From contig JALHMS010000003.1 of assembly GCA_022843925.1 (NCBI GenBank), positions 58,440 to 122,439 on the forward strand: DNA of 64,000 nt, in the 5' to 3' direction. This document shows, piece after piece, positions 6,073-33,016 of the stretch (positions are counted from its first letter, which is position 1; each line of letters opens with the position of its first letter). The translations under genes and the position numbers were made by a program. The notes beneath the pieces are model-generated. The model was given only the letters and a program-made list of their open reading frames with translations. It searched no databases and was not told the DNA's origin. Origin of the DNA: Burkholderiales bacterium. GTDB lineage: Bacteria; Pseudomonadota; Gammaproteobacteria; Burkholderiales; Ga0077523.

Positions 6073-6433
6073 GGGCAGTTCCGGGAAGCTGCAGGTAGAC
6101 CGCGCCATCGCGCTCCACCACAGAAAGTTTCTGGAGGCGCCCCCCCTTGCACGGTCCCCCTAGGCAAGCCCCGCTCTCGGGGGCATACAAGGCACCGTGG
6201 GTGGCGCAGATCAAGTATAGACCGCTGTGATCGAAGAACTGACCTTCGCTCCAGTCCAGTTCGACAGGTACGTGCGCGCACCGATTCAGGTAGGCGTGGA
6301 CCTGTCCGTCGTAGCGGATCACGAAGGCGGGCACCCTGCCGCCCGGTGCATCGACATCGAACTTCACGCCGCCCCCCCCTTCTTCCAGCGCGTCCGCGGG
6401 GCAGATCAGGCGTTCTGTCTCAACCAAACCCAA
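6065..6433 (-). CDS. Small Rieske (2Fe-2S) domain protein
   Basis: 122-aa ORF with the Rieske ligand pattern CAHVPVELD...CATHGALY (CxH...CxxH). The start codon is non-ATG (TTG at 6433 or 6427), so the start is uncertain. Confidence 0.75.
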   Translation of the reverse strand: MGLVETERLICPADALEEGGGGVKFDVDAPGGRVPAFVIRYDGQVHAYLNRCAHVPVELDWSEGQFFDHSGLYLICATHGALYAPESGACLGGPCKGGRLQKLSVVERDGAVYLQLPGTAHG

Positions 6434-7059
6434 AGCTCCTCCGGAGAATCGACCGTCACGTGGGGACGTGCCGTGCCGAGCTTCTCGGGCTCGTGGGCAC
6501 CATAGGTCACCGCAATGGACGACACCCCGGCGTTGTTCGCCATCTCGATGTCGTGGGTGGTGTCCCCCACCATCACCGCCCTATCCCTGGGAACATCGAG
6601 ATGCCCCAGCAGATACTCGAGCATCCCGGGGTGTGGCTTCGTGAAACCTTCGTCGCCGCAACGGGTGGCCTCGAAAAGTGTGCGCAGGCCGGTGGTGTCC
6701 AGGGCTCGTTCGAGACCGACCCGGCTCTTGCCCGTCGCCACCGCGAGCGTATGGCCCTGGCGCTGCAGAGCCGCGAGGCCCTCGGCCACTCCGTCGAAGA
6801 GCACCACGACGGACTCGCCCTTGACGTAGTGGTACTTGTATCGCTCGGTGATGAGGCCGTAGCGCTCCCGCGGCAGCGACGGAAACAGGTAGGTCATGGC
6901 GTCCAGCAGGCCCAGACCGATGATGTGACGGGCGTCATGGTCCGATGGAGGAGGCAGTCCGGCGTCGATGCTCGCTGCCTGAATGCTCTGGACGATGTGG
7001 GCGGCCGAATCGACCAGGGTGCCGTCCCAGTCGAAGATCACCAGATCGAAGCGCTTCAC
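6406..7059 (-). CDS. HAD-superfamily hydrolase (phosphoglycolate-phosphatase-like)
   Basis: The track ORF extends to 7170. The GTG at 7059 overlaps the rluC stop (GTGA) and gives VKRFDLVIFDWDGTLVDS (HAD motif I). The distal MVGDTTHDIEMA motif is also present. Confidence 0.8.
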   Translation of the reverse strand: MKRFDLVIFDWDGTLVDSAAHIVQSIQAASIDAGLPPPSDHDARHIIGLGLLDAMTYLFPSLPRERYGLITERYKYHYVKGESVVVLFDGVAEGLAALQRQGHTLAVATGKSRVGLERALDTTGLRTLFEATRCGDEGFTKPHPGMLEYLLGHLDVPRDRAVMVGDTTHDIEMANNAGVSSIAVTYGAHEPEKLGTARPHVTVDSPEELWVWLRQNA

Positions 7060-14181: not shown

Positions 14182-14295
14182 GGGTAAAATCAGGGGCTTG
14201 CCGACGGCGGATCTGTGAGTCTAGCACCGCCCCCGAGTTTCCCGATACCCGCCTGTTGCAGTGTTTCTCCACCTCGTCACGGACACCACTCCCAC

Positions 14296-15501
14296 ATGAC
14301 TTCCGAACTCTTCGCCCGCATCGAGATGGCGCCCCGGGACCCGATCCTCGGTGTCACCGAGGCCTTCGTCGCCGACACCAACCCGCGCAAGGTGAACCTC
14401 GGGGTCGGGGTCTATTACGACGACAACGGCAAGGTGCCGTTGCTCGAATGCGTGAAGCGCGCCGAAGCGCAGCTCGTGGCGGCCACCCTGCCCCGTGCCT
14501 ATCTCCCGATCGACGGCCTCGCCTCCTACGACAAGGCGGTCCAGGCACTCGTGTTCGGTGCCGGCTCCGATGTGATCGCGGCGAAGCGTGCAGTGACGGT
14601 GCAGGCGCTTGGTGGCACGGGTGCACTGAAGCTCGGGGCCGACTTCATCCGCCGCCTTGCGCCGGACGCCGAGGTCTGGATATCCGATCCCAGCTGGGAG
14701 AACCACCGCGCGCTCTTCGAGTTCGCCGGCTTCAAGGTCAACAGCTACCGCTACTACGACCCCGCCATCCGCGGGCTCGACTTTGCCGCGATGCGCGCAG
14801 CCCTCGAAACCATCCCCTCAGGGCACGTCGTCGTGCTTCATGCCTGCTGTCACAACCCCACCGGCGCGGACCTCACGAACGACCAGTGGGACGAGGTCAT
14901 CGCCATCGTGCGCGCACGCGGGCACATCCCGTTCCTCGACATGGCCTACCAGGGCTTCGGTGACGGCATCGAGGCCGACGCCCACGCCGTGCGCGCCTTC
15001 ACGGCAGCAGGCATGCCCCTCTTCGTGTCGAACTCCTTCTCCAAGTCGTTCTCGCTTTACGGTGAGCGCGTGGGTGCGCTCAGTGTCGTCGCGTCCACCG
15101 GCGAGGAGGCTGCCAGGCTGCTGAGCCAGCTGAAGCGCGTCGTCCGTACCAACTATTCCAATCCGCCCTCGCACGGCGGCAAGGTGGTGGCGTCGGTGCT
15201 GGAGTCGGCGGAGCTGCGAGGCATCTGGGAAGCCGAACTCGCCGGGATGCGCGACCGGATCCGCACCATGCGCTCCCGCCTGACCGATGGCCTGCGCAAC
15301 TCCGCGCCCACATCGGACTTCAGCTTCGTGCTTCGTCAGCGCGGCATGTTCTCCTACTCGGGACTCACCAAGGCCCAGGTGGACCGCCTTCGCACGGAGT
15401 TCTCCGTCTACGCGATCGACACCGGCCGCGTCTGTGTGGCCGCCCTCAATTCGAAGAACATCGACTACGTGGTCGAGTCGATCGGCAAGGTCATCGCCTG
15501 A
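14296..15501 (+). CDS. Class I aspartate/aromatic amino acid aminotransferase
   Basis: The track ORF starts at 14215; the internal ATG at 14296 gives MTSELFARIEMAPRDPILGV. The PLP-Lys region SNSFSKSFSLYGERVGAL is present. I cannot separate AspC-like from TyrB-like by eye. Confidence 0.9.
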   Translation: MTSELFARIEMAPRDPILGVTEAFVADTNPRKVNLGVGVYYDDNGKVPLLECVKRAEAQLVAATLPRAYLPIDGLASYDKAVQALVFGAGSDVIAAKRAVTVQALGGTGALKLGADFIRRLAPDAEVWISDPSWENHRALFEFAGFKVNSYRYYDPAIRGLDFAAMRAALETIPSGHVVVLHACCHNPTGADLTNDQWDEVIAIVRARGHIPFLDMAYQGFGDGIEADAHAVRAFTAAGMPLFVSNSFSKSFSLYGERVGALSVVASTGEEAARLLSQLKRVVRTNYSNPPSHGGKVVASVLESAELRGIWEAELAGMRDRIRTMRSRLTDGLRNSAPTSDFSFVLRQRGMFSYSGLTKAQVDRLRTEFSVYAIDTGRVCVAALNSKNIDYVVESIGKVIA

Positions 15502-15572
15502 CCATCTGACCGCGCAGGCGCCGTGAGCGTTGACCCGACCCGGCGCCATCGCTAGAATTCGCCGCCTTCAGT

Positions 15573-15648
15573 TCCCCGATAGCTCAGTCGGTAGAGCGAC
15601 GGACTGTTAATCCGCAGGTCCCTGGTTCGAGCCCAGGTCGGGGAGCCA
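15573..15648 (+). tRNA. tRNA-Asn (anticodon GUU)
   Basis: 76 nt. The acceptor stem TCCCCGA/TCGGGGA is followed by G and an encoded CCA. The anticodon loop is CTGTTAA and the T-arm is CCTGG-TTCGAGC-CCAGG. The cloverleaf was folded by hand. Confidence 0.93.
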
Positions 15649-15658
15649 ACGTATTCGA

Positions 15659-15687
15659 CGCCCGCAGAAATGCGGGCGTTTCTGTTT
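15659..15687 (+). terminator. Rho-independent terminator after tRNA-Asn
   Basis: Stem CGCCCGC/GCGGGCG with loop AGAAAT, followed by TTTCTGTTT. Confidence 0.75.
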
Positions 15688-15823
15688 CCGGCGCCTTTCC
15701 GGCGTCGCGAAGTTCGGCGCCGATGCCGTGCGAAACGAGGCCCGTCGGCGAACCGGCGATGGGGTAGGGTGTCTTCGACGGGCCCTTCCCGACAGTGCCG
15801 AGCACAGAACTCTGGAGCCTCCA

Positions 15824-16153
15824 ATGCACGCCTATCTCATTGATCCCAACAACCGCCAGATCATCGCCGTCGACATCGATGGCGGACTCGAGGGCATCCG
15901 TAAACTCATCGGTTTCGATTCCGTCGATTCCGACGAGATCGATGTCGCGGGCAATCGACTGTTCTTCGACGAGTCGTGCTTCATCCGCGATCAGCCGGGC
16001 GCGGGACGCTTCAAGCTCGACAATCTCCCGCCTGTGGCAGGACGCGGCGTGGTGGCCGCCGCGGATGACGCCGTGACTACCCCGCGCACGCCCACTCTGA
16101 CGCTGGAAGACCTGAAGGCCCGGGTGCAGTTTCTGGTTGCAGGGGCGGTCTGA
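15824..16153 (+). CDS. Hypothetical protein (possibly DUF3846-like)
   Basis: The track ORF starts at 15728; the internal ATG at 15824 is preceded by GGAG. The 109-aa product MHAYLIDPNNRQIIAVDIDGGLEGIRKLIG...FFDESCF loosely resembles the DUF3846 pattern from memory. No catalytic motif is present. Confidence 0.55.
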   Translation: MHAYLIDPNNRQIIAVDIDGGLEGIRKLIGFDSVDSDEIDVAGNRLFFDESCFIRDQPGAGRFKLDNLPPVAGRGVVAAADDAVTTPRTPTLTLEDLKARVQFLVAGAV

Positions 16154-16274
16154 ACAAGGCGATCAGGCGACACGTCGGATCGGATCCCGGGCACCATCGG
16201 CGATGCGCTGACTGACAGCGACGCCCACCGGTCCCACCTCGCGACATCCTCCACTCACTCCATCAGGATCCCCG

Positions 16275-18975: not shown

Positions 18976-19734
18976 TCAGGTCGACGATGCCACCGCAGCC
19001 TCTGCCGGCATCGACACCACCTCCATGCGATCGAGCAGGGTCCCGAAGTTGCGCATCGAATGCAGGTGCAGATAGATCAACTCCAACTCGTCCGTCTTCG
19101 CCAATTCCGCTAGAACGGTATCGGGAAGAGCCTTCAGGCGATCCCGATTGACGGTCAGAAAGCCGCTCAACGAAAGCTTTTCGCCGGACTTCGTGGTGAT
19201 CTGCGCCTGCATGGGATCGAGCAGATTGTGCTCCTTCAGCTTCTGGCAGAACTGGCGTGTGCGCTGGAACTGGGCCTGATACTCCTGCAGGAACTTGAGC
19301 ACGTTCTGCACGTACTCGGTGGGCTTGCCTTCGGCGTCGAACAGCGCGGCGCCACGGCCGTCCCGGTTGAAACCCTGGAAGGCCTCGTCGATGCATAGCG
19401 TGAAGGTGTCGCTGTCTTCGCTGCCGGAGAACACGAACGGATACCGACGGGCGAAGGCCGGCACATACTTGGCCGACCAGGAATGGCCGTCGGCGACAAA
19501 CAGGTTCTCCTTCGCGCGAAGACCGAGGATCACTGCCGGCATGACGGCCTCGTCGCTGCCCGCGAAGATGATGCTGTAGTCGGTGGACGCCGGCGGGAAC
19601 TCGACGGCCATGAGCGGCAGGGAATTCACGTGGCGCGCGAAGGCGTAGTCGTTGCCGACCTCGACGAAACATCCCGCGTGGCGTCCCGAGGACACCGGAA
19701 CCGCGCTCTCGTAGATCAACTGCTGTGTGCTCAT
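18976..19734 (-). CDS. SapC family protein
   Basis: 252-aa ORF. LPLMAVEFPPASTDYSIIFAG...AVILGLRAKENLFV...YVPAFARRYPFVF is the pattern I associate with the SapC family. Confidence 0.8.
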   Translation of the reverse strand: MSTQQLIYESAVPVSSGRHAGCFVEVGNDYAFARHVNSLPLMAVEFPPASTDYSIIFAGSDEAVMPAVILGLRAKENLFVADGHSWSAKYVPAFARRYPFVFSGSEDSDTFTLCIDEAFQGFNRDGRGAALFDAEGKPTEYVQNVLKFLQEYQAQFQRTRQFCQKLKEHNLLDPMQAQITTKSGEKLSLSGFLTVNRDRLKALPDTVLAELAKTDELELIYLHLHSMRNFGTLLDRMEVVSMPAEAAVASST

Positions 19735-19888
19735 CTCGACCCCTTTGTTGGATGGTTCCCACCCGGTCCGTCGGGCGGCTCCCGCGAGAATAGCGCAAGC
19801 CCGTGACGGGATGATCGGCCGCAGCCGGGTTTCGAACTGCAGTGGCAGCCGCTATTCTCCTCCCCGCCCCTCCACCGTCCCGAGACCG

Positions 19889-20785
19889 ATGAAACTCCAG
19901 CTGCTGTCGGATCTGCACCTCGAGCAATCGCCCGATTTCGTCCCCGAGGCAGCACCCGGTGCCGATGTGCTCGTGCTGGCCGGCGACATCGGGTCCTATC
20001 AGCGCGACTCCCGGCTGCAGGACTCCGACTTCGGTCTCGCGCGCTTCTCGCCCCGCCCATCCGGTGCCCCTTGGAAGACCGTTCTCTACGTTCCGGGCAA
20101 TCACGAGTACGACGATCTGGACTTCGACGAGACCCACGCCCGTCTTCGCACCACCTGCGAGCGCCTCGGCATCACGTGGCTCGAACAGCAGGTCGTCGTC
20201 CTCGAAGGCGTGCGTTTCGTCGGCGCGACGCTCTGGGCCGACTTCGACGCCATCGCCCGCCATCCCCCGTCGCCCACCGTGCTCGCCCGGCATGGCACCG
20301 GAGAGACGCAGCTCACATGGCAGATGCGGCAGCGCGAGAAAGCCTTCCGGGCGGCGAATTTCTACCTGGCGACGAACACCACCCATCGCGCCGGTCGCCC
20401 CTTGCTCGCAGAGGACATGCGTGAGCTTTCCCTCGCCAGCCAGGGGTGGTTGCGCGAGGCGCTGGCGACCCCCTTCGACGGCATCACCGTGGCCGTCACG
20501 CATTTCGCGCCGACGCTGCGCAGCCACGACCCGCGCTACGGCGTCACGCCGGGCACGGCGGGGTTCTGCAATGCACTGGACGAGTTGATGCCCTACGCCG
20601 ATCTCTGGTTGCATGGCCATCTCCATTGCGCCCACGACTACATCGTCGAAGGGGTCCATGAAGGCGCCCCCTTCCGTTGTCGCGTCGTCGCGAACCCGCT
20701 CGGCTACGGAGACAAGGGCGAGCAGGTCGCGTTCGATGCTCGCAAGGTGATCACCCTGACGTGCTCCGGAGCCGTGCCGGGCTGA
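19889..20785 (+). CDS. Metallophosphoesterase (calcineurin-like)
   Basis: The track ORF starts at 19727; the internal ATG at 19889 gives MKLQLLSDLHLE. The motifs DxH (SDLH), GD (LAGDIG), GNHE (PGNHEY) and GH (LHGHLH) are all present. Confidence 0.85.
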   Translation: MKLQLLSDLHLEQSPDFVPEAAPGADVLVLAGDIGSYQRDSRLQDSDFGLARFSPRPSGAPWKTVLYVPGNHEYDDLDFDETHARLRTTCERLGITWLEQQVVVLEGVRFVGATLWADFDAIARHPPSPTVLARHGTGETQLTWQMRQREKAFRAANFYLATNTTHRAGRPLLAEDMRELSLASQGWLREALATPFDGITVAVTHFAPTLRSHDPRYGVTPGTAGFCNALDELMPYADLWLHGHLHCAHDYIVEGVHEGAPFRCRVVANPLGYGDKGEQVAFDARKVITLTCSGAVPG

Positions 20786-20855
20786 TCCTCACCGGGTCGG
20801 CGCGACCACCTGTGAGTTCCGCCCACCCGACAGCCGTGGCCCGGATGGAGACGCA

Positions 20856-21905
20856 TCAAGCCCCGGCGCCGCCCGCAGCAACGAACGCTTCCGAGTAGAC
20901 GCGTTCAGGGCGAAGACCGCTCGTTGCCGCGATCGTCCGCACAGCGTGGATCATCCCCGGCGGTCCGCACACGTAGACGTCGGTGGCGTCGGGCAGCGCG
21001 TTTTGCAACGCCCGCGCCAGCGGGAGATCGGTGACGAGGCCCTGCGTCCCGATCCATGCGGCATCGGCCTCCTGCATCGCCAGGTGCAGCGCGTGATCCG
21101 GAAAACGTGACAGCAACGTCCGGAGTTCGTCGAGCCCGTAGAGATCCTCGCGCGTCGTCACGCCATGGAAGAGCGTCACCGGATCTGCCGTGTCGCCCTG
21201 CGCCACGAGCTCCCGCAGCATCGACATGATCGGGGCGAGGCCCGTACCGCCGGTCACGAAGATCCGGTGCGCAGGTCGCCGTCGGAGATGGAAGGCACCG
21301 AGCGGTCCGCGCACGTCGACGAGATCACCGGCCTTCGCGCGATGCGCCACGTAGTCGCTCATCACGCCGCCGGGCACGAGCCGGATGTGCAGTTCCACCT
21401 CGCCCGGCGTGGATGCGGCGTTGGCGAGCGAATAGCTCCGGCGGCTGTCGGTCCCCGGTATCACGACCTCGAGGTACTGGCCCGCCGTGAAGGCGAGCTT
21501 GAAACGTCCGCGGATCGCGCCACGCAGCACGACGACGCGGCCGGCGACGGGAACGATCTCCAGGACCTCGAGCACCATCTTGCGCACCGGGCGCACCGCC
21601 GCCCTCGGGTAGTCGAAGGTGATCTCGACCCCGTCCGCCCCCGGCTCGGCGATGCAGCAGAGCACCTCGTCCGGGGCGAGCGGGGCGAGACTCAGAAGGC
21701 GGTCGTGGCGGGCAGCGTAGACGACAGCGCCACGGTTCACGCGGCCTCGGCACGATTGGCACGTGCCCTCGCGACAGTCCGCCAGCGGTGCGCCGCCGGC
21801 GCGCTCCGCAGCCCCGAGCAGCGTCTCGCCCGGCATGGCAGGGACCTCGAACGCTTCGCCGTCACCGAACACGAAGCGACAGTTCACGCGGCCGCCCCCG
21901 CCCAC
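20856..21905 (-). CDS. Oxygenase reductase component: N-terminal plant-type 2Fe-2S ferredoxin fused to an FNR-like FAD/NAD(P)-binding domain
   Basis: 349-aa ORF with a GTG start abutting the SDR stop. It has the Cys motif CREGTCQSC (C-x4-C-x2-C) plus a later CC, RRSYSLAN (FAD RxYS motif) and FVTGGTGLAP (NAD-binding GGxG). Confidence 0.85.
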   Translation of the reverse strand: MGGGGRVNCRFVFGDGEAFEVPAMPGETLLGAAERAGGAPLADCREGTCQSCRGRVNRGAVVYAARHDRLLSLAPLAPDEVLCCIAEPGADGVEITFDYPRAAVRPVRKMVLEVLEIVPVAGRVVVLRGAIRGRFKLAFTAGQYLEVVIPGTDSRRSYSLANAASTPGEVELHIRLVPGGVMSDYVAHRAKAGDLVDVRGPLGAFHLRRRPAHRIFVTGGTGLAPIMSMLRELVAQGDTADPVTLFHGVTTREDLYGLDELRTLLSRFPDHALHLAMQEADAAWIGTQGLVTDLPLARALQNALPDATDVYVCGPPGMIHAVRTIAATSGLRPERVYSEAFVAAGGAGA

Positions 21906-22670
21906 CTAAAGCGCACTCGTGTAACCGCCGTCCACGTACAGGATCTGCCCGGTCACGTAGGCGGCGGCGTCGCTCGACAGGAAGGCCACCGCGCCGAGCA
22001 GATCGTCCAGTTCGCCGAAGCGGCCGGCCGGGATGCGCGGCAGCATCGCGCGCTGCCAGTCCGGATTCTCGTAGAAGACCTCGGTCATGGCCGTGCGGAA
22101 GTACCCCGGACCGATGGCGTTCACGCGGATGCCGAGCGCTGCCCATTCGGTGGCGAGCCCGCGCGTGAGTCCGAGGAGACCGTGCTTGCTCGACGTGTAC
22201 GGCACGGCGGTGGCGATGCCCACGGTCGATGCGAGGGAGCAGTTGTTGACGATCGCGCCGCCCTGCCCCGCCATGACGCGGGCCGCGGCCTGCGCCGCGA
22301 AGAACGGACCCTTCAGGTTCGTGTCGACGATGCGATCCCAGAGGGCCTCGGTCACGTCGGCCGACGGGCAGACCTGCTCCACGCCGGCGTTGTTGACGAG
22401 GACATCGAGACCGCCGAGCTGTTCGGCTGCGCGCTCGACGGCGCGCTGCACGGAGGCCACGTCGAGCATGTCCATCGGGACCATCGGCATATGGGCGTCG
22501 GCCGCGGAGGCCGTCTCCGCGAGTGCGGCCATGTCGCGCGCAGCGATGGCAACGCGGGCACCCGAGGCGGCGAGTCCGATGGCGAGCGCGCGTCCGATGC
22601 CACGGCTCGCGCCGGTGACGAGAATGCGTCGCCCGTCCAGCGGGATCCGCGTCCCCGGGCCGGTCTTCAA
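21906..22670 (-). CDS. Short-chain dehydrogenase/reductase (SDR)
   Basis: The track ORF runs to 23009 but overlaps the upstream oxygenase. The in-frame TTG at 22670 overlaps that gene's stop (TTGA) and gives 254 aa. TGASRGIG (TGxxxGxG), NNAG and YTSSK (YxxxK) are present. Confidence 0.85.
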   Translation of the reverse strand: MKTGPGTRIPLDGRRILVTGASRGIGRALAIGLAASGARVAIAARDMAALAETASAADAHMPMVPMDMLDVASVQRAVERAAEQLGGLDVLVNNAGVEQVCPSADVTEALWDRIVDTNLKGPFFAAQAAARVMAGQGGAIVNNCSLASTVGIATAVPYTSSKHGLLGLTRGLATEWAALGIRVNAIGPGYFRTAMTEVFYENPDWQRAMLPRIPAGRFGELDDLLGAVAFLSSDAAAYVTGQILYVDGGYTSAL

Positions 22671-23860
22671 CGGGCGGCCACCGCGCGTGCGACGAACTGG
22701 TTGAGCTGCCAGATCGCCTTCTCGAGATGGCTCAACCGGCCCGACTTCACCATCCCGGACTTCGCGCCGATCTGCTGCATCACATTGACGTCGATATCCT
22801 CGAGGTTGATCACGTCGAACGTCTTGTCCTGGATCGCCATGATCTTCGCGAAGTCGGGCAGCTGCTTCGTCTCGGGCTGGAGCATCTGGTACGAGCGCAG
22901 GCGTGTGCGGTCCGGTGCGATCGGCTCCACATGGAACCAGACCACGCGATCGGGGAACGTCGCGAGCAGGTGGCACGGGTAGACCAGATACAGTCCGAAG
23001 GCTTCGCACTCCTGCTGGTTCACGAGCGGGAATCGCGGCAGTCCCACGTCGAAGGCCTCGGGCACGGATTCCGGACGCCCCACGCCGAACCCGCAGGTCC
23101 AGGCCTCACGGGAGTCCTCCACGTAGCTCAGCTTGGCGGGGAAATCGGGTTCGAACGTGTCGGCGTGCGGACCGATGTGGTGGTAGCACTCCATGAACGT
23201 CTCCACCATGATCTTCCAGTTGAACCGGCAGTCGTACTCGAGCACCGACCCCACGACCAGGCGATCGAGCTGATAGTTGGCGAGCGCGGCCGACATCTCG
23301 GCGATGGCCGGTGCGAGCGGCGGCGCGTTGCCGTCGAGGTTCACGAACACGAAGCCGTCGACCACCTCGGCGCGGTACTCCGGCAGCGCGCAGGTGTCGC
23401 GATCGAAGTCGAGGGCCTCCTCCATCAGCGGCGCGCCGATCAGCCGCCCGTCCAGCGCGTACGACCACTTGTGGAACGGGCACACGAACGCGGCCGCATT
23501 GCCGTGGCCCGTGCACACCGGCGCCCATCGATGCCGACAGACGCGCGAGAGCGCACGGATGCGCTGGCCGTCGTTGACGATCACCATCAGCTCACCCAGC
23601 CAGTCGACCGACCGGAAGTCGCCGCGCGATGGAAGCTGGGAGACGTGCGCGACGCACATCCAGCCCGGCCGGAATGCCCCCGCCACCTCGCGCTGGAAGA
23701 ACGCCGCGCTCGTGTACGCACCGGGCGGCAGTGTCTCCGCGCGGTTGAGGGGAAGGGCCCCGATACGGGCCACTTCGCGCAACAGCGCATCGATGCCGAC
23801 GAGGGTCTCGGGATCTGTGACTACGGTGTCCATGAATGCCTCCTGCCCGGGTGTTGCCAT
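22667..23860 (-). CDS. Rieske non-heme iron oxygenase, alpha subunit (choline/carnitine/betaine-monooxygenase-like subgroup suspected)
   Basis: 397-aa ORF; an alternative ATG lies 9 codons in. It has the Rieske motif CRHRWAPV...CPFHKWSY and the mononuclear-iron motif NWKIMVETFMECYHHIGPH. No adjacent beta-subunit gene is present. Confidence 0.85.
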   Translation of the reverse strand: MATPGQEAFMDTVVTDPETLVGIDALLREVARIGALPLNRAETLPPGAYTSAAFFQREVAGAFRPGWMCVAHVSQLPSRGDFRSVDWLGELMVIVNDGQRIRALSRVCRHRWAPVCTGHGNAAAFVCPFHKWSYALDGRLIGAPLMEEALDFDRDTCALPEYRAEVVDGFVFVNLDGNAPPLAPAIAEMSAALANYQLDRLVVGSVLEYDCRFNWKIMVETFMECYHHIGPHADTFEPDFPAKLSYVEDSREAWTCGFGVGRPESVPEAFDVGLPRFPLVNQQECEAFGLYLVYPCHLLATFPDRVVWFHVEPIAPDRTRLRSYQMLQPETKQLPDFAKIMAIQDKTFDVINLEDIDVNVMQQIGAKSGMVKSGRLSHLEKAIWQLNQFVARAVAAR

Positions 23861-23879
23861 GCGGGTATGTCGTCGCGCG

Positions 23880-25241
23880 TCAGAAGTGAGTGAGATAGCG
23901 ATCGATTTCCCAGTCCGTCACGTGGCTCTGGTAGGAATCCCACTCGTTGCGCTTGAAGTCGCGATAGGCCGCGAACATGCGCGAGCCGAATACGGCCTTC
24001 GACAGCGGGTCGGCCTCGAACGCGTCGATGGCGTCGCCGAGCGTGCGCGGCAGGTACCGGATGCCCTTCTCCGCCAGCTCGGCATCGCTGTAGAGATACA
24101 TGTTCTCGGCGTGCGGCTCGCCGGGGTCGAGCCCCTCGCGGATGCCTTCGAGCCCTGCCGCCAGCATGAGCGCCGCGCCGAGATAGACGTTGCACGAGAT
24201 GTCGGCGGCGCGGCATTCCACGCGTCCACCCGCCAGCGGGATCCGCAGCATGTTCGTGCGGTTGTTGTTGCCGTAGCAGACGAACACCGGCGCCCACGTG
24301 AAGCCCGACATCGACCCGCGCCGGACGAGTCGCTTGTAGCTGTTGACCGTCGGTGCGATCACCGAACAGATGGCCGGCGCATGGCGCAGGATGCCCGCGA
24401 CGAACTGGTAACCCAGCTTCGAGATGCCGCAGCCCCGCGGGTCGGTCTCCGTCTCGAAGAGGTTGGCGCCGGTCTTCGCGTCGGCGAGCGACATGTTGAA
24501 GTGGGCTCCGCTGCCGGTCCGGTTGCGGAACGGCTTCGGCATGAAGCTCGCCATCCAGCCGCGCTTCCGGGCGAGCTCACCGATCATCAATCGCAGGAAG
24601 GTGATGCGGTCCGCCATGGTGACGGCGTCGGCGTACATGAAGTCGATCTCGAACTGCCCGTTGGCGTCCTCGTGGTCGAACGAATAGACGTCCCAGCCGA
24701 GCGTGTTCATCGCCGTCACGACCTCGTCGACGAACGAGTAGCTGTCGAGCAGGCCCTTCACGTCGTAGCAGGGCTTCTCGAGGATGTCGCGCTCGCTCAC
24801 CGGAACGATCTTCCCGCCCTCGTCCTTCTTCAGGATGAAGAACTCCGGCTCGATACCCAGCATCATCCGGAGGCCCATGGCCTCCGCCTCGGCCTGCACC
24901 TTCTTGAGGATCCCGCGTGCGCAGGCGTCGAACGGCTTCCCGCCGAGGTACAGATCGCTCGGCGCCCAGGCCAGCTCGGGATTCCAGGGGCAGATCGCCA
25001 GCGCGTCGATGTCGGGGTGCGCCGAGACCTCCTCGTCGTTGACCTCCTGGGGCACGCCCTCCAGCGCGGCGCCGGTGAAGAGTTCGGACCCCTTCAGCAT
25101 CTGGTCGAAGTGCGTGAGCGGCACCGCCTTCGCCTTGCTGTTCCCGTGGAGGTCGACGAAGCTCGCGAGGACGTACTTCACGCCCGCCGCCGCCAGTTCC
25201 TTCACCTTGGGGTTCGTGCTGTCTTCGATGCGCGCGGTCAT
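23880..25241 (-). CDS. Glutamine-synthetase-family ligase (type III GS / GlnT / gamma-glutamyl-amine synthetase-like)
   Basis: The track ORF runs to 25514; the internal ATG at 25241 gives a 453-aa product starting MTARIEDSTNPKVKELAAAGVKYVLASFVDLHG. The GS catalytic region is present (GIEPEFF, FMPKPFRNRTGSGAHFNMSL, NSYKRL, RIP). Confidence 0.85.
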   Translation of the reverse strand: MTARIEDSTNPKVKELAAAGVKYVLASFVDLHGNSKAKAVPLTHFDQMLKGSELFTGAALEGVPQEVNDEEVSAHPDIDALAICPWNPELAWAPSDLYLGGKPFDACARGILKKVQAEAEAMGLRMMLGIEPEFFILKKDEGGKIVPVSERDILEKPCYDVKGLLDSYSFVDEVVTAMNTLGWDVYSFDHEDANGQFEIDFMYADAVTMADRITFLRLMIGELARKRGWMASFMPKPFRNRTGSGAHFNMSLADAKTGANLFETETDPRGCGISKLGYQFVAGILRHAPAICSVIAPTVNSYKRLVRRGSMSGFTWAPVFVCYGNNNRTNMLRIPLAGGRVECRAADISCNVYLGAALMLAAGLEGIREGLDPGEPHAENMYLYSDAELAEKGIRYLPRTLGDAIDAFEADPLSKAVFGSRMFAAYRDFKRNEWDSYQSHVTDWEIDRYLTHF

Positions 25242-25389
25242 GGGGTGGGTCCTGTCGGGTCCTGGAGGGTGGAGCGGATCGGGCAAGGTCGATGGGATGT
25301 CACGCGTGCGGCCGGTCAGGCATTCCGAAGGTCTTGCATGTCCGTGGTACCGGACGGCGCGGACGGCTCCGCCGCACGCGGTCACAAGC

Positions 25390-25405
25390 GCAAGCGCGGT
25401 GCCAC
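25390..25405 (-). promoter_or_regulatory. Sigma-54 (-24/-12) type promoter upstream of the GS-like gene
   Basis: The minus strand reads C-TGGCAC-CGCGC-TTGC-G, an exact match to the TGGCAC-N5-TTGC core. It lies about 150 nt upstream of the ATG at 25241, in a 306-bp intergenic region. Of the TGGCAC-containing sites I examined by eye, it is the only one with correct spacing outside a coding region. Confidence 0.6.
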
Positions 25406-25547
25406 GGGGCGGATTCGCCAACCGGCTGAATTCATGGGACGTTGCGGCAGGCCGTCGCCCGCATCTCGCACTTCGCATGGGCGAGCGTCCCGCGCACGCA
25501 CAACGGAAGTGCACCTGCTGCGCCTGCCTGCGACCCTCGCACGGTCA

Positions 25548-26948
25548 TCAGATGGACAGCAGCGACTCGACGTAGAAGTAGATGAAGTTCGAGCCGCCGT
25601 TCACGTTCCCCGGCGCCCGTGACTGCCCGAAGATCCCGGAGCGGTGCGATACACCGAAGCCGGCGTACGTGTCGGTCAGCGCCTTCACGCGCACGATGTC
25701 GCCGAGATTGCCGTCGACCGTGGGTTCGAGATGGTTGAGGAGCCGCGACGTGCCGCGATCGCGGCGCGCCTGATCGCGGACCTCCACGTAGGGGACCTGG
25801 ATCGCCAGGGAAAGCCCGGCGCCGAAGCCGACGCGGGTGCGGACGCGGTCGCCCCAGGGGAAACCGTGGTATTGCGCCTTCATATAGCCCTGCACGCTCC
25901 AACCGTCGCTCTGCAGGCCGTTCTCCTGGTGTCGCAGCGCGCCCACGAAGCCGACGAAGTCCAGCGGCCACCCGTTCACGTTCTCGAGGAACGGTCGTCC
26001 GATCTGGACGCCCGCGATGCTCGTGCCGTCCTCCGTGGCGGTCGAGGCGCAGCGCAGCGACATCGTGGTGATGAGATTGCAATCGGTGGAGCGACCGTAG
26101 AGCAGTCGCACGATCACCGCTTCGCGGGCCGGCCAGCGCGGAACCGTGGTGCCGAAATCGTAGGCGGCGCCGAGATGGCCGGACAGCAGCAGCCGTTGGC
26201 TCACGACCGGGCTCTCGCGAATCTCGCTGGAGAGATGCGTGAGACCCAGCCCCCCCAGAAGCTGCCATCCAGGGCTCAGGCGATAGCGCAGGTCGAGGCC
26301 GACCATCACGTCCAGCCCGCCGCCGGCCTGGTACTCCGGGCGGCCTGGGCGGACCTCGGTGGGGCGCACCCCGAAGTAGTAGTTGTTGAGGGCCGCGTTG
26401 CGGAAGGACAGCACCGCGTAGGGCAGCAACGAAAGGCGCTCGCCGTCGGCGTGCTGACGCAGACCCATCCGCAGTTCGGTGCCGTCGGACAACCCGGAGA
26501 CGTCGACCCGGATCTCGCCGAAGGCCTCGACGGTGCCGCGGCGTTGTCGCAACGCCATTCCGGCATCGACGCCCTGCTCGCGGATCGCCATGCCGGCCAG
26601 GGACGTCGGGACGGATTGCGCGGGCGTGCCCTCGAAGCGCTGCGAGAGGAAGAGGTCCACGTAGCAGTCGTCCAACACCGCGAACTTCAGACCCGCCCGG
26701 TACGAGTAGATGTACGCGTGGTCACTCTCGAACAGATAGAGCGGCATCAGATCGACGCGCGCATCGGCCCCCCGATACGGCGATTGCTCCGAGCGGACCA
26801 GGAGGCCCACGATGGCGCGCCCTTCCGAGGCGACGAGTCCGATGAGGGGATCGGGCGGCGCCGCGGCCGCGGTACCGGGAAAGAGCGCCCAAAGGCAGGT
26901 TAAACCCAACGAGACGAGGCTCCGCACCCGGGCCCTCCGTGACGACAT
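25548..26948 (-). CDS. Outer-membrane protein, apparent fusion of a MipA/OmpV-like domain and a PagL-like (acyloxyacyl hydrolase) domain
   Basis: The track ORF runs to 27308; the internal ATG at 26948 gives MSSRRARVRSLVSLGLTCLWALFPGTAAAAPP (signal peptide). The N-terminal half is MipA-like (SPYRGADARVDLMPLYLFE, NNYYFGV, SSEIRESPVV, AAYDFG). The C-terminal half ends GFGVSHRSGIFG...GGSNFIYFYVESLLSI, resembling the HxS active-site region of PagL. Confidence 0.7.
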   Translation of the reverse strand: MSSRRARVRSLVSLGLTCLWALFPGTAAAAPPDPLIGLVASEGRAIVGLLVRSEQSPYRGADARVDLMPLYLFESDHAYIYSYRAGLKFAVLDDCYVDLFLSQRFEGTPAQSVPTSLAGMAIREQGVDAGMALRQRRGTVEAFGEIRVDVSGLSDGTELRMGLRQHADGERLSLLPYAVLSFRNAALNNYYFGVRPTEVRPGRPEYQAGGGLDVMVGLDLRYRLSPGWQLLGGLGLTHLSSEIRESPVVSQRLLLSGHLGAAYDFGTTVPRWPAREAVIVRLLYGRSTDCNLITTMSLRCASTATEDGTSIAGVQIGRPFLENVNGWPLDFVGFVGALRHQENGLQSDGWSVQGYMKAQYHGFPWGDRVRTRVGFGAGLSLAIQVPYVEVRDQARRDRGTSRLLNHLEPTVDGNLGDIVRVKALTDTYAGFGVSHRSGIFGQSRAPGNVNGGSNFIYFYVESLLSI

Positions 26949-27016
26949 GCAACGAAGGCAGCCTGTGCCGGGCGGGGCTCGCGGTCTGTGCGGTCCCGCT
27001 CCGAAAGACCTCCGGG

Positions 27017-27208
27017 TCAGTCGTGCGCGGCGGGCGGCAGCGCTTCGGCAGCGTCGTCGATCAGCCGTCTCGCCGCCTGGCTGTCGTCGATGTGCGCGAT
27101 CGCGAGAAGCGCGAAGCGCGCGAGGAAGAGCGTCGCCGCCGGTTCGCCAAGCGTGGTCATCACCTGGCAGAGACGCGTGTAGATCGCGTCGAGCTCGCCA
27201 TCGGTCAC
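27017..27208 (-). CDS. DUF2783 domain protein
   Basis: These are the last 63 codons of track ORF 27017..28240. The GTG at 27208 overlaps the monooxygenase stop (GTGA). VTDGELDAIYTRLCQVMTTL...ARFALLAIAHIDD matches my memory of DUF2783, which usually follows MhpA-like monooxygenases. Confidence 0.6.
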   Translation of the reverse strand: MTDGELDAIYTRLCQVMTTLGEPAATLFLARFALLAIAHIDDSQAARRLIDDAAEALPPAAHD

Positions 27209-29121
27209 GAAAGCGCTCCCTGGATGCTTCCGTGGACGAGGGCGCGATCCAGCGCGGCCTGGATCGATCCGACGTCGGGATGCTGCCATCGTCCAAGCAC
27301 GTGGCCATCGGGTCTCACGACGTAGACTGCGCCAGGGCGCGCACCGAACATCGGGAAGAGATGACCGGTGTGATCGACGGCGCCGGAACATCGCCCGGAA
27401 GACGACATGCGACGGCGGACGGGCACCACGGTGAACGGGATCCCGCGCTCGCGCATCGTCGCCTGGACCATGTCGAGAACGGGGGAAGTCGCCTCGTCGC
27501 CGCAGAACCAGAGGGCGGTGAACCCGCTGCCGAGGAGGTCCGTCACGTGACCTATCCGGGGTGCGCCCGCATCGCCCGGGGTCGCGGGCAGCGTCAGCGG
27601 ACATGCCGGCAACACCGCACCGGGCTTGGGGCCCGCATCGAACGCATCGACACCATCGGGGGCGTTGAGCGGCGACCGCGTGTAGGTGATGGCCGAGGTC
27701 TGCCGCGGATTGATGAGCGCCCGCACCGCCGGATGCCGCGCGGCGAGCCCGAGCACTGCGGTGCGCATCAGGTCGAATGCGAAGGATGGCGGGGCCATGA
27801 ACTCGGTGCTCTTCGCCCCGTGTTCCAGATTCTCGCGGGCCGCTGCGACCCGCTCGTCGGAATAGGTATCGAGCAGTGGCTCCCCGGCGAGTCCGCGGAC
27901 GACGTACGCCAGCTTCCAGGCGAGGTTGTCGGCATCGTCGATGCCGGAGTTGGCGCCACGTACACCGAAGATCGGCATCAGGTGGGCGGCATCCCCGGCG
28001 AACAGCACGCGCCCGTGGCGATAGCGATCGAGCGTGAGCGCGTTCGCACGATAGAGGGAGATCCACACCGGCGACCAGTCCGACCGCTCGCCCATCATCT
28101 CGAGCAGGCTCTCGACGCGCGGATTGACGTTCCCGGGGAGCACCGCCGCGTCGGAGTCCTCGTCCTCGCGCAGCTGGTAGTCGATGCGCCAGACGCCGTG
28201 GGGCTGCTTGTGCACGAGCACGGTGGAGCCGGGATTGCACGGCGGGTCGAAGTAGGCGAGGCGCTCGGTCGGGCGGTCGCTGTCGAGCAGTATGTCGACG
28301 ATCACGTAACGGCCCTGGTAGGAAGTCCCGCGCAGCGCAAGCCCGAGGGACTCCCGTACGAAGCTGCGCCCTCCGTCCGCAGCGACGACCCAGTCCGCGT
28401 GCATGCGGTACGCGCCGTCCGGTGTCGAGAGCGTCAGCATCACGCCGTCGGCACGCGCCTCGATCGACGTGACTCGCGTCTGCCAGCGGATGTCGATGTG
28501 CGAGGTGTCCCGTTCAGCAGTCTCCAGGAGGATCTGCTCGATGTGGTACTGGGCGAGATTCACCATCGGCGGGTGCTTCTGCAGTTCGTCGTGGGGCATC
28601 CGGAAATGCAGTACCTCGGTGTCGCGGTAGAAGCTGCGCCCGCCCGTCCAGGGGAGCCCGATGTCCAGAAACCCTGCGGCGGCGCCGAGGCGGTCGAAGA
28701 TCTCGAGACTGCGGCGTGAAATGCAGATCGCGCGGCTGCCCGCGCAGACGCCATCGTCCGCCTCGATGAGCACCACCGGCACATCGTGACGCGCGAGCCC
28801 GAGGGCAGTCGTCAGCCCCACGGGCCCGCCCCCGACGACGACGACCGGATGACCGGATATCTCCACGCCGTCGCGCAGCGTCGGAATCGGCGCCGCATGC
28901 ACCGCCGCACGAAACGGGTAGGGCCGGAACTCGCGGGTGCGCGACGCGCGGATCGGGATGTCGGGCGATGGGCTGCCGGATGCGGGTCCCGCGTCGGTGG
29001 GAATCGGGCTGGGGCTCACGCTGTGCGGCATGGAAGGCTCTTGCGGACGCGACTGGTCCGACATTGTGGCTGATGGTGGGAACCGATGGCGAAGTCGGTG
29101 CAGGGCCACGGGTCGATCCAC
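27205..29121 (-). CDS. FAD-dependent aromatic-ring monooxygenase (MhpA/PheA-TfdB-like, with C-terminal thioredoxin-like domain)
   Basis: It has the Rossmann motif HPVVVVGGGPVGLTTALGLARHDVPVVLIE, plus GRVLFAGDAAH and GANSGIDDADNLAWKL. The start is uncertain: GTG 29121, ATG 29067 or ATG 29031. Confidence 0.85.
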   Translation of the reverse strand: MDRPVALHRLRHRFPPSATMSDQSRPQEPSMPHSVSPSPIPTDAGPASGSPSPDIPIRASRTREFRPYPFRAAVHAAPIPTLRDGVEISGHPVVVVGGGPVGLTTALGLARHDVPVVLIEADDGVCAGSRAICISRRSLEIFDRLGAAAGFLDIGLPWTGGRSFYRDTEVLHFRMPHDELQKHPPMVNLAQYHIEQILLETAERDTSHIDIRWQTRVTSIEARADGVMLTLSTPDGAYRMHADWVVAADGGRSFVRESLGLALRGTSYQGRYVIVDILLDSDRPTERLAYFDPPCNPGSTVLVHKQPHGVWRIDYQLREDEDSDAAVLPGNVNPRVESLLEMMGERSDWSPVWISLYRANALTLDRYRHGRVLFAGDAAHLMPIFGVRGANSGIDDADNLAWKLAYVVRGLAGEPLLDTYSDERVAAARENLEHGAKSTEFMAPPSFAFDLMRTAVLGLAARHPAVRALINPRQTSAITYTRSPLNAPDGVDAFDAGPKPGAVLPACPLTLPATPGDAGAPRIGHVTDLLGSGFTALWFCGDEATSPVLDMVQATMRERGIPFTVVPVRRRMSSSGRCSGAVDHTGHLFPMFGARPGAVYVVRPDGHVLGRWQHPDVGSIQAALDRALVHGSIQGALS

Positions 29122-31525: not shown

Positions 31526-33016
31526 TCAGCCCGTCCCCCGCATCCTCGGCGAGCAATCCGGAAACAGCGTGGAGAGCGCGACGCTCTCGTAGGCGCCGCG
31601 CACGATCCTCACGTGTTCACGACGGAACTCCCGGGCATGCCGCAGACCGCACGCGTGCGCGATCATGTCGATCTCGCGGTTCATGTTCCGTGTGAAGTTG
31701 GCCACGCGAAGGTATTTCTCCTCGACGACGAGGCCGCGCTGGAGCCGGCGGTTGTGCGTGGTGATCCCTGTCGGGCATGTGTTCGCATGGCACCGCAGCG
31801 CCTGGATGCACCCGAGCGCGAACATGTAGCCCCGGGCGGTGTTCACGAAGTCCGCACCGGCGCACAGCGCCCAGGTGGCCTTGGCCGAGGTCACGAGCTT
31901 GCCGCTCGCCACCACCCGCACGCGCTCCCGCAGTCCGGCCTCCACCAGGGCGTCGACCACCCGCGGGAGCGCCTCGGTGATCGGCAGCGCCATGTGATCC
32001 ATCAATGCCTGCGGCGCCGCGCCGGTTCCCCCCTCGCCGCCGTCGATCACGAGGAAATCCGGCGCCCATTCGGGGCCCCGTCTCAGGATGGCCTCGCAGA
32101 GCTGGTGCATGAAGTCCCAACCGCCGATGGCCGTCTTCACTCCGACGGGCCGCCCGGTGATGTCGCGGACGCGGCCGATCATGTCGAGGAGTTGATCGGC
32201 GTTGGCGATGTCGTGATGGCGGTTGGGGCTGATGGAATCCACGTGCGGCGCGATGCCGCGGATGGCTGCGATCTCCTCGCTCACCTTCGCCGCCGGCAGC
32301 ACGCCGCCCTTGCCGGGCTTGGCCCCCTGCGAGAGCTTGATCTCGAAGGCCCGCACGCGCGGGGCCAGTTCCCGCAGTCGCTCGTTGCTGAGCGCCCCTG
32401 ACCGATCGCGTACGCCGTACTTCGCCGTGCCGATCTGCATGACGAGGTCGCATCCCGCCTCCTCGTGATAGGGGGAGAGACCGCCCTCCCCCGTGCCCAT
32501 CCAGCACCCGGACTCCCGGGCGCCGCGGGCCAGGGCGCGCACCGCGGGGGCCGAGATCGCGCCGAAGCTCATGCCGCTGATGTTCACGATGGACTTCGCT
32601 TCGAAGGGCTCGCGACAGTAGTCCGCCCCGATGATGCAGGCGGGCGTCGGCGTCTGCTCGACCTCGAGCGTCGGAAACGGGGCGTTCACGAACAGGATGT
32701 TGCCGGGTTCGCTCAGATTGTTCGTGGACCCGAATCCGATCGTGCCGCCTTCATCCTTCGCCAGCCGGTAGATCCAGCCCCGCACGCTGCGGTTGAAGGG
32801 CATCTCCTCGCGATCGTTCGCGAAGAAATACTGTCGGAAGTACTCGCCCTGCCGCTCGAACAGATAGCGCAACCGCCCGACCACCGGAAAGTTGCGGAGG
32901 ATGGTGTGCTTCTTCTGCGTGACGTCCTGGACGAACCAGACGATCACCAGCGCGAGCAGTGCGAACCCTATGAAGGTTCCGATTCCCTGCAGCAGCAGAC
33001 TGCCGATGTTGCTCAT
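31526..33016 (-). CDS. FMN-binding glutamate-synthase-family protein (GltB domain-2-like, membrane anchored)
   Basis: 496-aa ORF with an N-terminal TM helix. It then has ISGMSFGAIS, LSQGAKPGKGGVLP and IDGGEGGTGAAP, typical of GltS FMN-domain homologues. Confidence 0.85.
   Translation of the reverse strand: MSNIGSLLLQGIGTFIGFALLALVIVWFVQDVTQKKHTILRNFPVVGRLRYLFERQGEYFRQYFFANDREEMPFNRSVRGWIYRLAKDEGGTIGFGSTNNLSEPGNILFVNAPFPTLEVEQTPTPACIIGADYCREPFEAKSIVNISGMSFGAISAPAVRALARGARESGCWMGTGEGGLSPYHEEAGCDLVMQIGTAKYGVRDRSGALSNERLRELAPRVRAFEIKLSQGAKPGKGGVLPAAKVSEEIAAIRGIAPHVDSISPNRHHDIANADQLLDMIGRVRDITGRPVGVKTAIGGWDFMHQLCEAILRRGPEWAPDFLVIDGGEGGTGAAPQALMDHMALPITEALPRVVDALVEAGLRERVRVVASGKLVTSAKATWALCAGADFVNTARGYMFALGCIQALRCHANTCPTGITTHNRRLQRGLVVEEKYLRVANFTRNMNREIDMIAHACGLRHAREFRREHVRIVRGAYESVALSTLFPDCSPRMRGTG

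Follow-up and report, generated by a model that had tools for sequence, protein, structure and literature searches.

Operon architecture

The DNA analyzed here is a 64-kb stretch of a Burkholderiales bacterium contig (hereafter the window, with a GC content of 66.8%). On its minus strand it carries a tightly packed four-gene operon that encodes, in order, a glutamine synthetase (GS)-like ligase, a Rieske oxygenase, a short-chain dehydrogenase/reductase (SDR) and a fused Fer2-FNR reductase, preceded by a sigma-54-type promoter element. The operon lies within the chromosomal core, with uvrB, ccm genes, eno, kdsA and pyrG as wider neighbors. Horizontal acquisition was considered and rejected, as the GC content shows no anomaly. 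The features are as follows; related loci and database entries are cited by L and P numbers.

25497..25516 (-): candidate upstream activator site AGGTGCACTTCCGTTGTGCG; 20 nt kept in the related locus L008
25390..25404 (-): sigma-54-type -24/-12 element TGGCAC-CGCGC-TTGC; exact consensus match; predicted start near 25378, leader of ~137 nt
23880..25241 (-): predicted ATP-dependent glutamate-amine ligase of a GmaS-like "S/D" subfamily; 453 aa; Pfam Gln-synt_C 3.5e-97; TIGR03105 583 bits
22667..23833 (-): predicted alpha-only Rieske non-heme-iron monooxygenase; 388 aa; Rieske and Ring_hydroxyl_A domains; alternative ATG upstream at 23860
21906..22670 (-): classical SDR dehydrogenase; 254 aa; adh_short and adh_short_C2; TTG start
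20856..21887 (-): fused reductase, plant-type [2Fe-2S] ferredoxin at the N-terminus followed by an FNR module; Fer2, FAD_binding_6 and NAD_binding_1; alternative GTG at 21905

An initial annotation of the sequence described the four same-strand genes as joined by a 19-nt gap, a 4-nt TTGA overlap and directly abutting stop and start codons. The gene arrangement and the overlap hold: the TTG start of the SDR overlaps the oxygenase stop by 4 nt, and the identical overlap occurs in Derxia. The two other junctions need revision. The oxygenase most likely starts at 23833 and not at 23860, because an AGGAGG sequence lies 6 nt before this second ATG and the database protein P0001 is likewise 388 residues long; the gap between ligase and oxygenase is then 46 nt. 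A reductase start at 21905, abutting the SDR stop, appears doubtful, since homologs align from the GTG at 21887 and the relative on the P0002 contig has an 18-nt gap there. Neither a sigma-70-like promoter nor an intrinsic terminator was found within 20500-25700, and no gene for an oxygenase beta subunit, an amidotransferase or a regulator stands beside the four genes. An Rfam scan of the operon leader and of the whole window returned two tRNAs and no riboswitch.

The reductase contains the motif CREGTCQSC and has the domain order already recognized in the initial annotation, a 2Fe-2S ferredoxin fused to FNR. This architecture is that of BenC, AntC and MmoC, whose NCBIfam models score it at 200-240 bits, each under its cut-off. 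Orthologs of the reductase (64-91% identity) are found in L001-L004 and L008, and orthologs of the SDR (58-97% identity) come after the oxygenase in L002 and L005-L010.

The ligase defines a distinct subfamily

The first product has the size and the GS catalytic region originally assigned to it, including the sequence MPKPFRNRTGSGAHFNMSL. It passes the NCBIfam model TIGR03105, "type III glutamate--ammonia ligase" (cut-off 469.6), and falls below the GlnA model TIGR00653, with 329 bits against a cut-off of 429. Its best solved relatives are gamma-glutamylmethylamide synthetases (GmaS), namely 9qur (424 bits) and RhGmaS 7cql (311 bits), and identity reaches 46% with a solved glutamate--methylamine ligase, the best PDB match.

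Residues are numbered here as in RhGmaS, for which Gln175 and Asn188 are among the residues assigned to the methylamine pocket (PMC7948447); positions 175 and 188 correspond to Ser187 and Asp200 of the window ligase. Some of the GS motifs compared here are taken from the same paper. Catalytic Asp177, Glu186, Arg312 and Arg317 are kept in the window ligase, and an alignment of 44 sequences, oxygenase-linked and canonical, shows them throughout. The ammonium-handling residues of GS are absent. The relevant loop reads FTGAA where GS has FDGSS, with Thr for Asp50′ and no Ser53′; the flap SGFTWAP places Trp at the position of GS Glu327; and Asp177 stands where GS has His. Because of the Trp in the flap, the Thr in place of Asp50′ and the GmaS-type catalytic residues, the protein does not appear to be a typical ammonium enzyme.

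The ligase also departs from canonical GmaS. Its clade is marked by T48, S175, D188, N237 and F298 (position 298 is S or Y in a few members), against A48, Q175, N188, H237 and A298 in GmaS. The Q/N pair at 175/188 is found in 7/7 canonical GmaS sequences, and the S/D pair in 38/38 ligases of oxygenase loci and in 48 metagenomic relatives. Neighbor-joining trees (no bootstrap values) group the window ligase with all of the oxygenase-linked ligases, in a clade that is sister to the GmaS enzymes linked to mgsABC, a placement that agrees with the signature residues and with gene context. In a metagenome scan with the ligase alignment, mgsABC was nearby in 0/48 S/D ligases, and at least one mgs gene was nearby in 30/32 Q/N or A/N ligases. 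Five plasmid-borne "glnT" genes, 42-46% identical to the window ligase, are canonical GmaS genes, since all of them adjoin mgsABC; the window itself contains neither mgsA nor mgsB. By residues, tree position and context, then, the ligase is assigned to a distinct subfamily that is neither a true GS nor a canonical GmaS/GlnT.

The oxygenase resembles CntA and Stc2

The oxygenase carries the Rieske motif CRH...CPFH and the iron-site motif ECYHHIGPH, and residues C99, H101, C118, H121, H218, H223 and D346 are invariant in 19 members of the family. Some other residues are conserved in the ligase-linked oxygenases alone. The iron motifs and the lack of a beta subunit noted from the outset are upheld, as neither the operon nor its flanks contain a beta gene. 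By sequence, solved structures match only weakly; the match to CntA (1e-32) covers mainly the N-terminal 230 residues, and the GbcA model NF058607 gives 115 bits against a cut-off of 670, with only the N-terminal half matching. The AlphaFold model (pLDDT 83.4, pTM 0.85) gives CntA as the best Foldseek match in the PDB (E 5e-26, TMq 0.78, TMt 0.84); across the CntA entries, TMq is 0.76-0.80, TMt 0.82-0.86 and identity 23-25%. Stachydrine demethylase (Stc2) ranks next, ahead of the ring dioxygenases. The predicted fold supports an oxygenase of the CntA/Stc2 kind, which would oxidize a carbon next to nitrogen.

Sigma-54-type promoter and upstream region

The promoter element, TGGCACCGCGCTTGC at 25390-25404 (-), is the sole exact TGGCAC-N5-TTGC in the 64 kb, where 0.09 are expected per window; 8/100 shuffled windows contain at least one. 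It has the GG-N10-GC core of sigma-54 promoters and lies on the coding strand. As the initial annotation correctly placed it, the element lies ~150 nt before the ligase ATG, in a 306-bp gap that separates this codon from the stop of a MipA-family gene (25548). The syntenic locus L008, from a betaproteobacterial metagenome-assembled genome whose DNA is 88-94% identical to the window, keeps the element as TGGCACTGCGCTTGC, with a single spacer change, and the immediate surroundings are also kept. An independent example, TGGCATGCCACTTGC, stands upstream of the ligase in Stella vacuolata (L038). In the leader (25242-25378), which matches no Rfam family, L008 has ~100 nt extra; the last ~60 nt, including the ribosome-binding site, are conserved.

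To place these elements in a wider frame, 1.33 Mb of related loci were scanned with one mismatch allowed. Intergenic positions no more than 400 nt upstream of a same-strand gene make up 5.8% of all positions and hold 35 of the 100 motif matches (binomial p ~1e-18). Most of these 35 stand ahead of a ligase/oxygenase or ligase/guanidine cluster, before its first gene. Loci with analogous motifs are L038, L011, L018-L023, L026, L039-L043, L114, L115 and L121. Because the exact match is unique, is conserved in L008 and recurs upstream of related clusters, the predicted promoter is very probably real, and nitrogen control is very probably a trait of the family.

About 95 nt upstream of the -24 element, the 20-mer AGGTGCACTTCCGTTGTGCG is identical in the window and L008, with both flanks diverged. 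It loosely resembles an NtrC-type TGCAC-N-GTGCA repeat and could be an activator site. The window genes that were scanned include no activator gene; in the explanation favored below, NtrC would be the probable activator of the sigma-54 promoter.

Coupling of ligase and oxygenase across genomes

A scan with the oxygenase alignment, using one genome per species, returned 77 loci. An S/D ligase lies within 10 kb in 36/45 loci that have a full-length oxygenase at least 36% identical, and in 0/31 loci with more distant oxygenases; the S/D signature is shared by all 38 ligase copies of these genome loci. L008 and the P0002 contig (oxygenase 90% identical) repeat the four genes in exactly this order, and near-variants are seen in L001-L006. 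The block of genes that the initial annotation proposed to look for in relatives is accordingly present. Carriers belong to Burkholderiales, Derxia, Steroidobacteraceae, Pseudomonas and many Alphaproteobacteria. Since cultured carriers exist (Derxia gummosa, D. lacustris, Stella vacuolata, Pseudomonas bohemica, P. typographi, Acidocella aromatica and Methylobrevis pamukkalensis), the function of the operon is testable. Among plasmids, a near-identity search with the operon DNA gave only short SDR matches (~73% identity) in Rhizobium, and a protein search with the oxygenase gave only relatives at most 34% identical, with generic names.

The partner genes differ between groups. In Burkholderiales and Derxia they encode a MetX-like hydrolase, GntR, NMT1-type binding proteins and an amidohydrolase; in Alphaproteobacteria and Pseudomonas, an SBP_bac_3 ABC transporter, a luciferase-like monooxygenase, an aldo-keto reductase, a KstD-like flavoprotein, TetR, a creatininase-like protein and a split cucumopine-synthase-like pair. 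MetX-like, GntR, SBP_bac_3 and the other partner genes are all missing from the window. The initial annotation took the absence of a hydrolase, a beta subunit and a local regulator to set this system apart. All three are indeed absent here; most related loci carry a candidate hydrolase and a regulator, and judged by gene content the absence of the hydrolase and of a GntR or TetR regulator is a peculiarity of the window's lineage and not of the system.

Several of these neighborhoods have features of their own. The small-gene pair, a cyclophilin-like/DUF3830 protein (~142 aa) and a Cucumopine_C helical-bundle protein (~160-175 aa), resembles a split cucumopine synthase and lies directly beside the S/D ligase in L039-L043 (Pseudomonas), L024, L028, L031, L040 and others, in clusters from Pseudomonas and Rhodobacterales. 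L033, L034 and L037 share the order single DUF1989 gene, SBP_bac_3, permease, luciferase-like monooxygenase, oxygenase and class II aldolase-like gene.

The S/D ligase also directly adjoins more distant Rieske oxygenases in L089, L093, L095 and L122, and a 2-oxoglutarate (2OG) oxygenase in L096. L095:3-5161 and L122:8001-13226 have the order ligase, NMT1, permease, ATPase and distant Rieske oxygenase; the Rieske protein of L095 is ~29% identical to the window oxygenase, and that of L122 is a weak hidden Markov model match (E 2.7e-11). In L096:6772-10480 the ligase adjoins a DIOX_N/2OG-Fe(II) oxygenase, and a DUF1989 gene lies close by.

The ligase subfamily in guanidine operons

The commonest arrangement around S/D ligases comprises an NMT1 binding protein, permease, ATPase, creatininase-like protein, ligase, an optional NikR-like protein, two DUF1989 proteins, urea/guanidine carboxylase and allophanate hydrolase. 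In L115 (4018-15842 +) the genes are tightly packed in the order NMT1, permease, ATPase, creatininase-like, ligase, DUF1989, DUF1989, carboxylase and allophanate hydrolase. The ligase follows a creatininase-family gene in the guanidine-I operons of L115, L114:3691-9326 (+), L106, L109, L116, L121 and L088, and Rfam places guanidine-I riboswitches ahead of the L114 and L115 operons, with further ones in L106 and L088. The ligase-oxygenase-SDR block of Derxia is flanked by two operons controlled by guanidine-I and one carboxylase gene controlled by guanidine-II. Ligases from guanidine and oxygenase contexts are interspersed in the ligase tree. When the NMT1 binding proteins of oxygenase and riboswitch operons were compared, long branches were obtained. 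The window contains no guanidine carboxylase, DUF1989, creatininase-like or transporter gene.

A sigma-54-type motif is located 40-60 nt upstream of the guanidine-I aptamer in L114:3677-3865, L115:4004-4177 and L088:1124-1348 (-). The same stacking is seen twice in L005, at 6327-6553 (-) and 12416-12605 (+). The arrangement suggests that nitrogen limitation and guanidine may exert stacked control at these loci. In Derxia lacustris (L005 = L079, 1662-6455 (-)), and likewise in L006, a guanidine-I riboswitch heads an operon for NMT1, a membrane FA_desaturase-type di-iron oxygenase, an SDR, an EamA transporter, a creatininase-like protein and a metallo-beta-lactamase-fold protein. A guanidine response of oxidative enzymes is surprising, as guanidine itself has no C-H bond.

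Only two routes of guanidine breakdown are recognized in a November 2025 review, one through GdmH and the other through carboxylase, CgdAB and allophanate hydrolase, and no role is listed for a ligase (PMC12623156). In the accessible literature we found no description of the ligase-oxygenase pair or of a role for the ligase or creatininase-like protein in guanidine operons, nor did we find the term "glutamylguanidine". It is conceivable, though rather improbable, that the S/D ligase joins glutamate to guanidine (or to a substituted guanidine or amidine) and works with a creatininase-like acylguanidine hydrolase, or with Rieske oxygenase and SDR, in a third, ATP-dependent route to guanidine nitrogen. 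The window operon would then be an oxidative branch for N-alkylated guanidines or related amines, under sigma-54 rather than riboswitch control. Such a glutamyl-activation route would deliver part of the guanidine-type nitrogen directly as glutamine.

Proposed function and alternatives

The explanation we favor, tentatively and at somewhat less than an even chance, is glutamylation of a small cationic nitrogen compound by the ligase, followed by oxidation of the conjugate by the oxygenase, which leaves glutamine. The operon would be a self-contained nitrogen-scavenging unit transcribed from the sigma-54 promoter. With ATP, the ligase would join the gamma-carboxyl group of glutamate to a small, probably cationic nitrogen nucleophile, such as a short alkylamine or a guanidine/amidine-type compound, to give an N5-substituted glutamine. 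The CntA/Stc2-like monooxygenase, supplied with electrons from NAD(P)H through the fused ferredoxin-FNR reductase, would hydroxylate the carbon next to the amide nitrogen. The resulting carbinolamide would either collapse or be oxidized by the translationally coupled SDR to an acyl-glutamine that is then hydrolyzed, and the end products would be glutamine, with its nitrogen already assimilated, and an aldehyde or acid. Oxidation of a carbinolamide by the SDR appears chemically reasonable; the PHM/PAL system illustrates the fair stability of N-acyl hemiaminals. More broadly, the data fit a module that couples the S/D ligase to an enzyme acting on a nitrogen-attached group, either removing or modifying it; this enzyme is an oxygenase here and a creatininase-like hydrolase elsewhere.

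The ligase is placed first because the known characterized ligase-oxygenase clusters all work in that order, the Ipu and Pip pathways among them, and because only this order lets the four genes alone deliver assimilated nitrogen, there being no mgsA/B and no hydrolase in the window. The aniline and naphthylamine systems are a further reason, as the gamma-glutamylated amine is the direct substrate of the dioxygenase there (PMC11335346). The nitrogen-regulated ligase-oxygenase pathway of the initial annotation is partly supported by the amine-ligase-like residues, the coupling in 36/45 loci, the CntA/Stc2 fold and the promoter motif; its sequence of ligase, oxygenase and SDR, together with substrate and product, is something we infer.

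A number of observations weigh against this explanation. In nine of the 45 oxygenase loci, two of them on short contigs, the surrounding 10 kb contain no ligase, and L033, L034 and L037 have a DUF1989 gene instead. Conversely, of the 18 S/D metagenomic loci flanked by at least 8 kb, only 5 contain a Rieske oxygenase and 13 have no oxygenase nearby. Ligase relatives at 50-67% identity mostly lack an oxygenase and reside in guanidine-riboswitch/guanidine-carboxylase operons, so that one outcome named in the initial annotation as contrary to its proposal, a ligase found in relatives apart from the oxygenase genes, is in part what we see. The pocket residues of the ligase are invariant across very different contexts, which fits one common small substrate better than whatever amine a given oxygenase needs. 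True GS I-alpha likewise has D188, N237 and a small residue at 175, and the signature may be ancestral rather than adaptive. The ligase scores above the GlnT cut-off of NCBIfam, a candidate hydrolase (MetX-like, creatininase-like or amidohydrolase) is present in most relatives and absent from this operon, and both the ligase and the oxygenase belong to uncharacterized subfamilies.

Some of these points are better accommodated if the oxygenase acts first, an unlikely alternative that nonetheless deserves weight. The Rieske enzyme and SDR would cleave an N-substituted compound, such as an alkylguanidine or N-alkyl amino compound, and the ligase would trap the released guanidine or short amine on glutamate, with nitrogen release left to enzymes encoded elsewhere. 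An invariant ligase pocket alongside varied oxygenases (three Rieske lineages, 2OG and FA-desaturase type) and transporters (SBP_bac_3, NMT1 and NCS1) speaks for such an order, which also suits the membership of the S/D ligase in guanidine-I-riboswitch operons and the presence of DUF1989, the carboxyguanidine-deiminase family, in ligase-less oxygenase loci. CntA, the closest fold, frees an amine by C-N cleavage, and in the catabolism of methylated amines the Tmm/Dmm oxygenases act ahead of GmaS. Against this order, the window and L008 encode nothing to free nitrogen from the gamma-glutamyl product, which would be a dead end for the four genes alone; the ligase is the first gene of the operon, and no characterized ligase-oxygenase cluster is known to run in that direction. 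Improbable, in our judgment, is a genuine ammonium-assimilating GS paralog (GlnT) accompanied by an oxygenase and SDR that either deaminate a primary amine oxidatively or are unrelated neighbors. The TIGR03105 score, the database name "glutamine synthetase" and the GS I-alpha states at 175, 188 and 237 speak for it, ammonia is the one product that guanidine-carboxylase operons share with any amine-oxidizing operon, and sigma-54 control suits an assimilatory enzyme. However, the ligase lacks Asp50′, Ser53′ and the Glu flap and has Asp177 in place of the GS His, as in GmaS; the TIGR03105 label also covers proven GmaS genes adjoining mgsABC; a second GS would be redundant under NtrC control; and the conserved, tight coupling to one oxygenase family would go unexplained.

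The 46% identity to a solved glutamate--methylamine ligase might instead point to an ordinary methylamine GmaS beside an unrelated oxygenase operon. This is highly improbable: the ligase belongs to a separate clade with different pocket residues, S/D ligases never adjoin mgsABC whereas Q/N and A/N ligases almost always do, mgsA and mgsB are missing from the window, and the link to the oxygenase spans Beta-, Gamma- and Alphaproteobacteria. The least probable explanation is an aniline-type dioxygenase, for which the ligase would form a gamma-glutamyl-arylamide, the oxygenase would dihydroxylate the ring and the SDR would serve as cis-dihydrodiol dehydrogenase. A set of ligase, Rieske protein, BenC-type reductase and SDR does resemble the ben/atd gene sets, and the oxygenase has a Ring_hydroxyl_A domain, but the window has neither an oxygenase beta subunit nor a GAT-like hydrolase, and ring-cleavage genes were not found nearby. 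Moreover, the GmaS-like ligase has a small polar pocket as opposed to the large hydrophobic pocket described for NpaA1/AtdA1, the oxygenase fold is nearer to CntA/Stc2 than to ring dioxygenases, and the genomic contexts are those of urea, guanidine and amide nitrogen scavenging.

If the favored order, glutamylation followed by oxidation, holds, the operon would represent a compact nitrogen-regulated glutamylate-then-oxidize route built from different enzyme lineages and yielding glutamine directly. Routes of this kind are known for aromatic amines and for a few alkylamines. The subfamily also matters for annotation. Its ligases are automatically named "type III glutamate--ammonia ligase / glnT", and both annotations and gmaS-based environmental surveys may lump two functions; the S175/D188 signature together with gene context separates the subfamily cleanly from real GmaS/GlnT. 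The guanidine-riboswitch operons that contain it point toward a step of guanidine metabolism that has yet to be described.

Neighboring features of the window

The downstream boundary of the operon is a rearrangement site, because an insertion in L008 and the gene content of the P0002 contig differ from the window. Between the reductase and a metallophosphoesterase gene, L008 has ~3.6 kb extra (12992-16189, against window 20786-20855), and on P0002 the two are separated by phosphoketolase (XFP) and 6-phosphogluconate-dehydrogenase-like genes. The metallophosphoesterase (19727-20785) was considered as a recurrent neighbor of S/D ligases and rejected, as there is no similarity and the gene is separated from the operon on P0002 and in L008.

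Upstream, the longest open reading frames of the MipA-family gene (25548-27308, -) and of an FAD_binding_3 monooxygenase (27205-29121, -) overlap by ~100 nt. Both have long Arg/Ala-rich N-terminal extensions ahead of their Pfam domains, which begin at residue 167 (MipA) and residue 92 (FAD), and for this reason the true starts probably lie further downstream. A stand-alone FMN-binding glutamate-synthase-domain protein of 496 aa is encoded at 31526-33016 (-); it was considered as MgsC of the N-methylglutamate pathway and rejected, being 27% identical to MgsC in a window that has no mgsA/mgsB. At 48199-49680 (+), a protein with DinB_2 and FGE-sulfatase domains has an EgtB/OvoA-like sulfoxide-synthase architecture and may mark thiol-histidine biosynthesis.

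Comparison with known systems

Among known systems, the Atd/Tdn/Npa clusters (AtdA1-A5, TdnQTA1A2B, NpaA1-A5) likewise combine a GS-like ATP-dependent ligase with a Rieske oxygenase and a reductase. They have an alpha + beta oxygenase that dihydroxylates the ring, a GAT-like gamma-glutamylanilide hydrolase and a "GoaS" ligase with a large hydrophobic pocket (PMC11335346). The window operon, in contrast, has an alpha-only CntA-like oxygenase, no hydrolase, an SDR, a GmaS-like ligase and predicted sigma-54 control.

GmaS/GlnT of the gmaS-mgsABC-mgdABCD clusters is the closest relative of the ligase in sequence and structure, with 40-46% identity, shared Asp177, Glu186 and Trp flap, no Asp50′ and the same NCBIfam model. 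The window ligase differs in its separate clade, in having S175/D188 instead of Q175/N188, and in never occurring beside mgsABC; partners of its subfamily are oxygenases, or creatininase-like and guanidine-carboxylase genes. Operons of the guanidine carboxylase pathway (guanidine-I riboswitch, NMT1-type ABC transporter, carboxylase, CgdAB = DUF1989 pair and allophanate hydrolase) encode S/D ligases, whereas riboswitch, carboxylase, DUF1989, creatininase-like and transporter genes are all lacking in the window.

On the oxygenase side, CntA, Stc2 and GbcA are alpha-only quaternary-ammonium monooxygenases with a Rieske center and non-heme iron that hydroxylate a carbon next to a cationic nitrogen and so break the C-N bond. 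They provide the best fold matches, but identity is only 21-25% and their systems have no ligase. The reductase here is of the BenC type, with its ferredoxin at the N-terminus, unlike the CntB/GbcB type.

The logic proposed for the window is that of the Ipu (isopropylamine) and Pip (piperidine) pathways, which glutamylate an aliphatic amine, hydroxylate the conjugate and oxidize the alcohol. Their oxygenase is a cytochrome P450 served by a separate ferredoxin and reductase, and they include a gamma-glutamyl hydrolase. Judged by its genes, the operon would be a variation on this glutamylate-then-oxidize theme, assembled from an uncharacterized ligase subfamily and an uncharacterized oxygenase subfamily.

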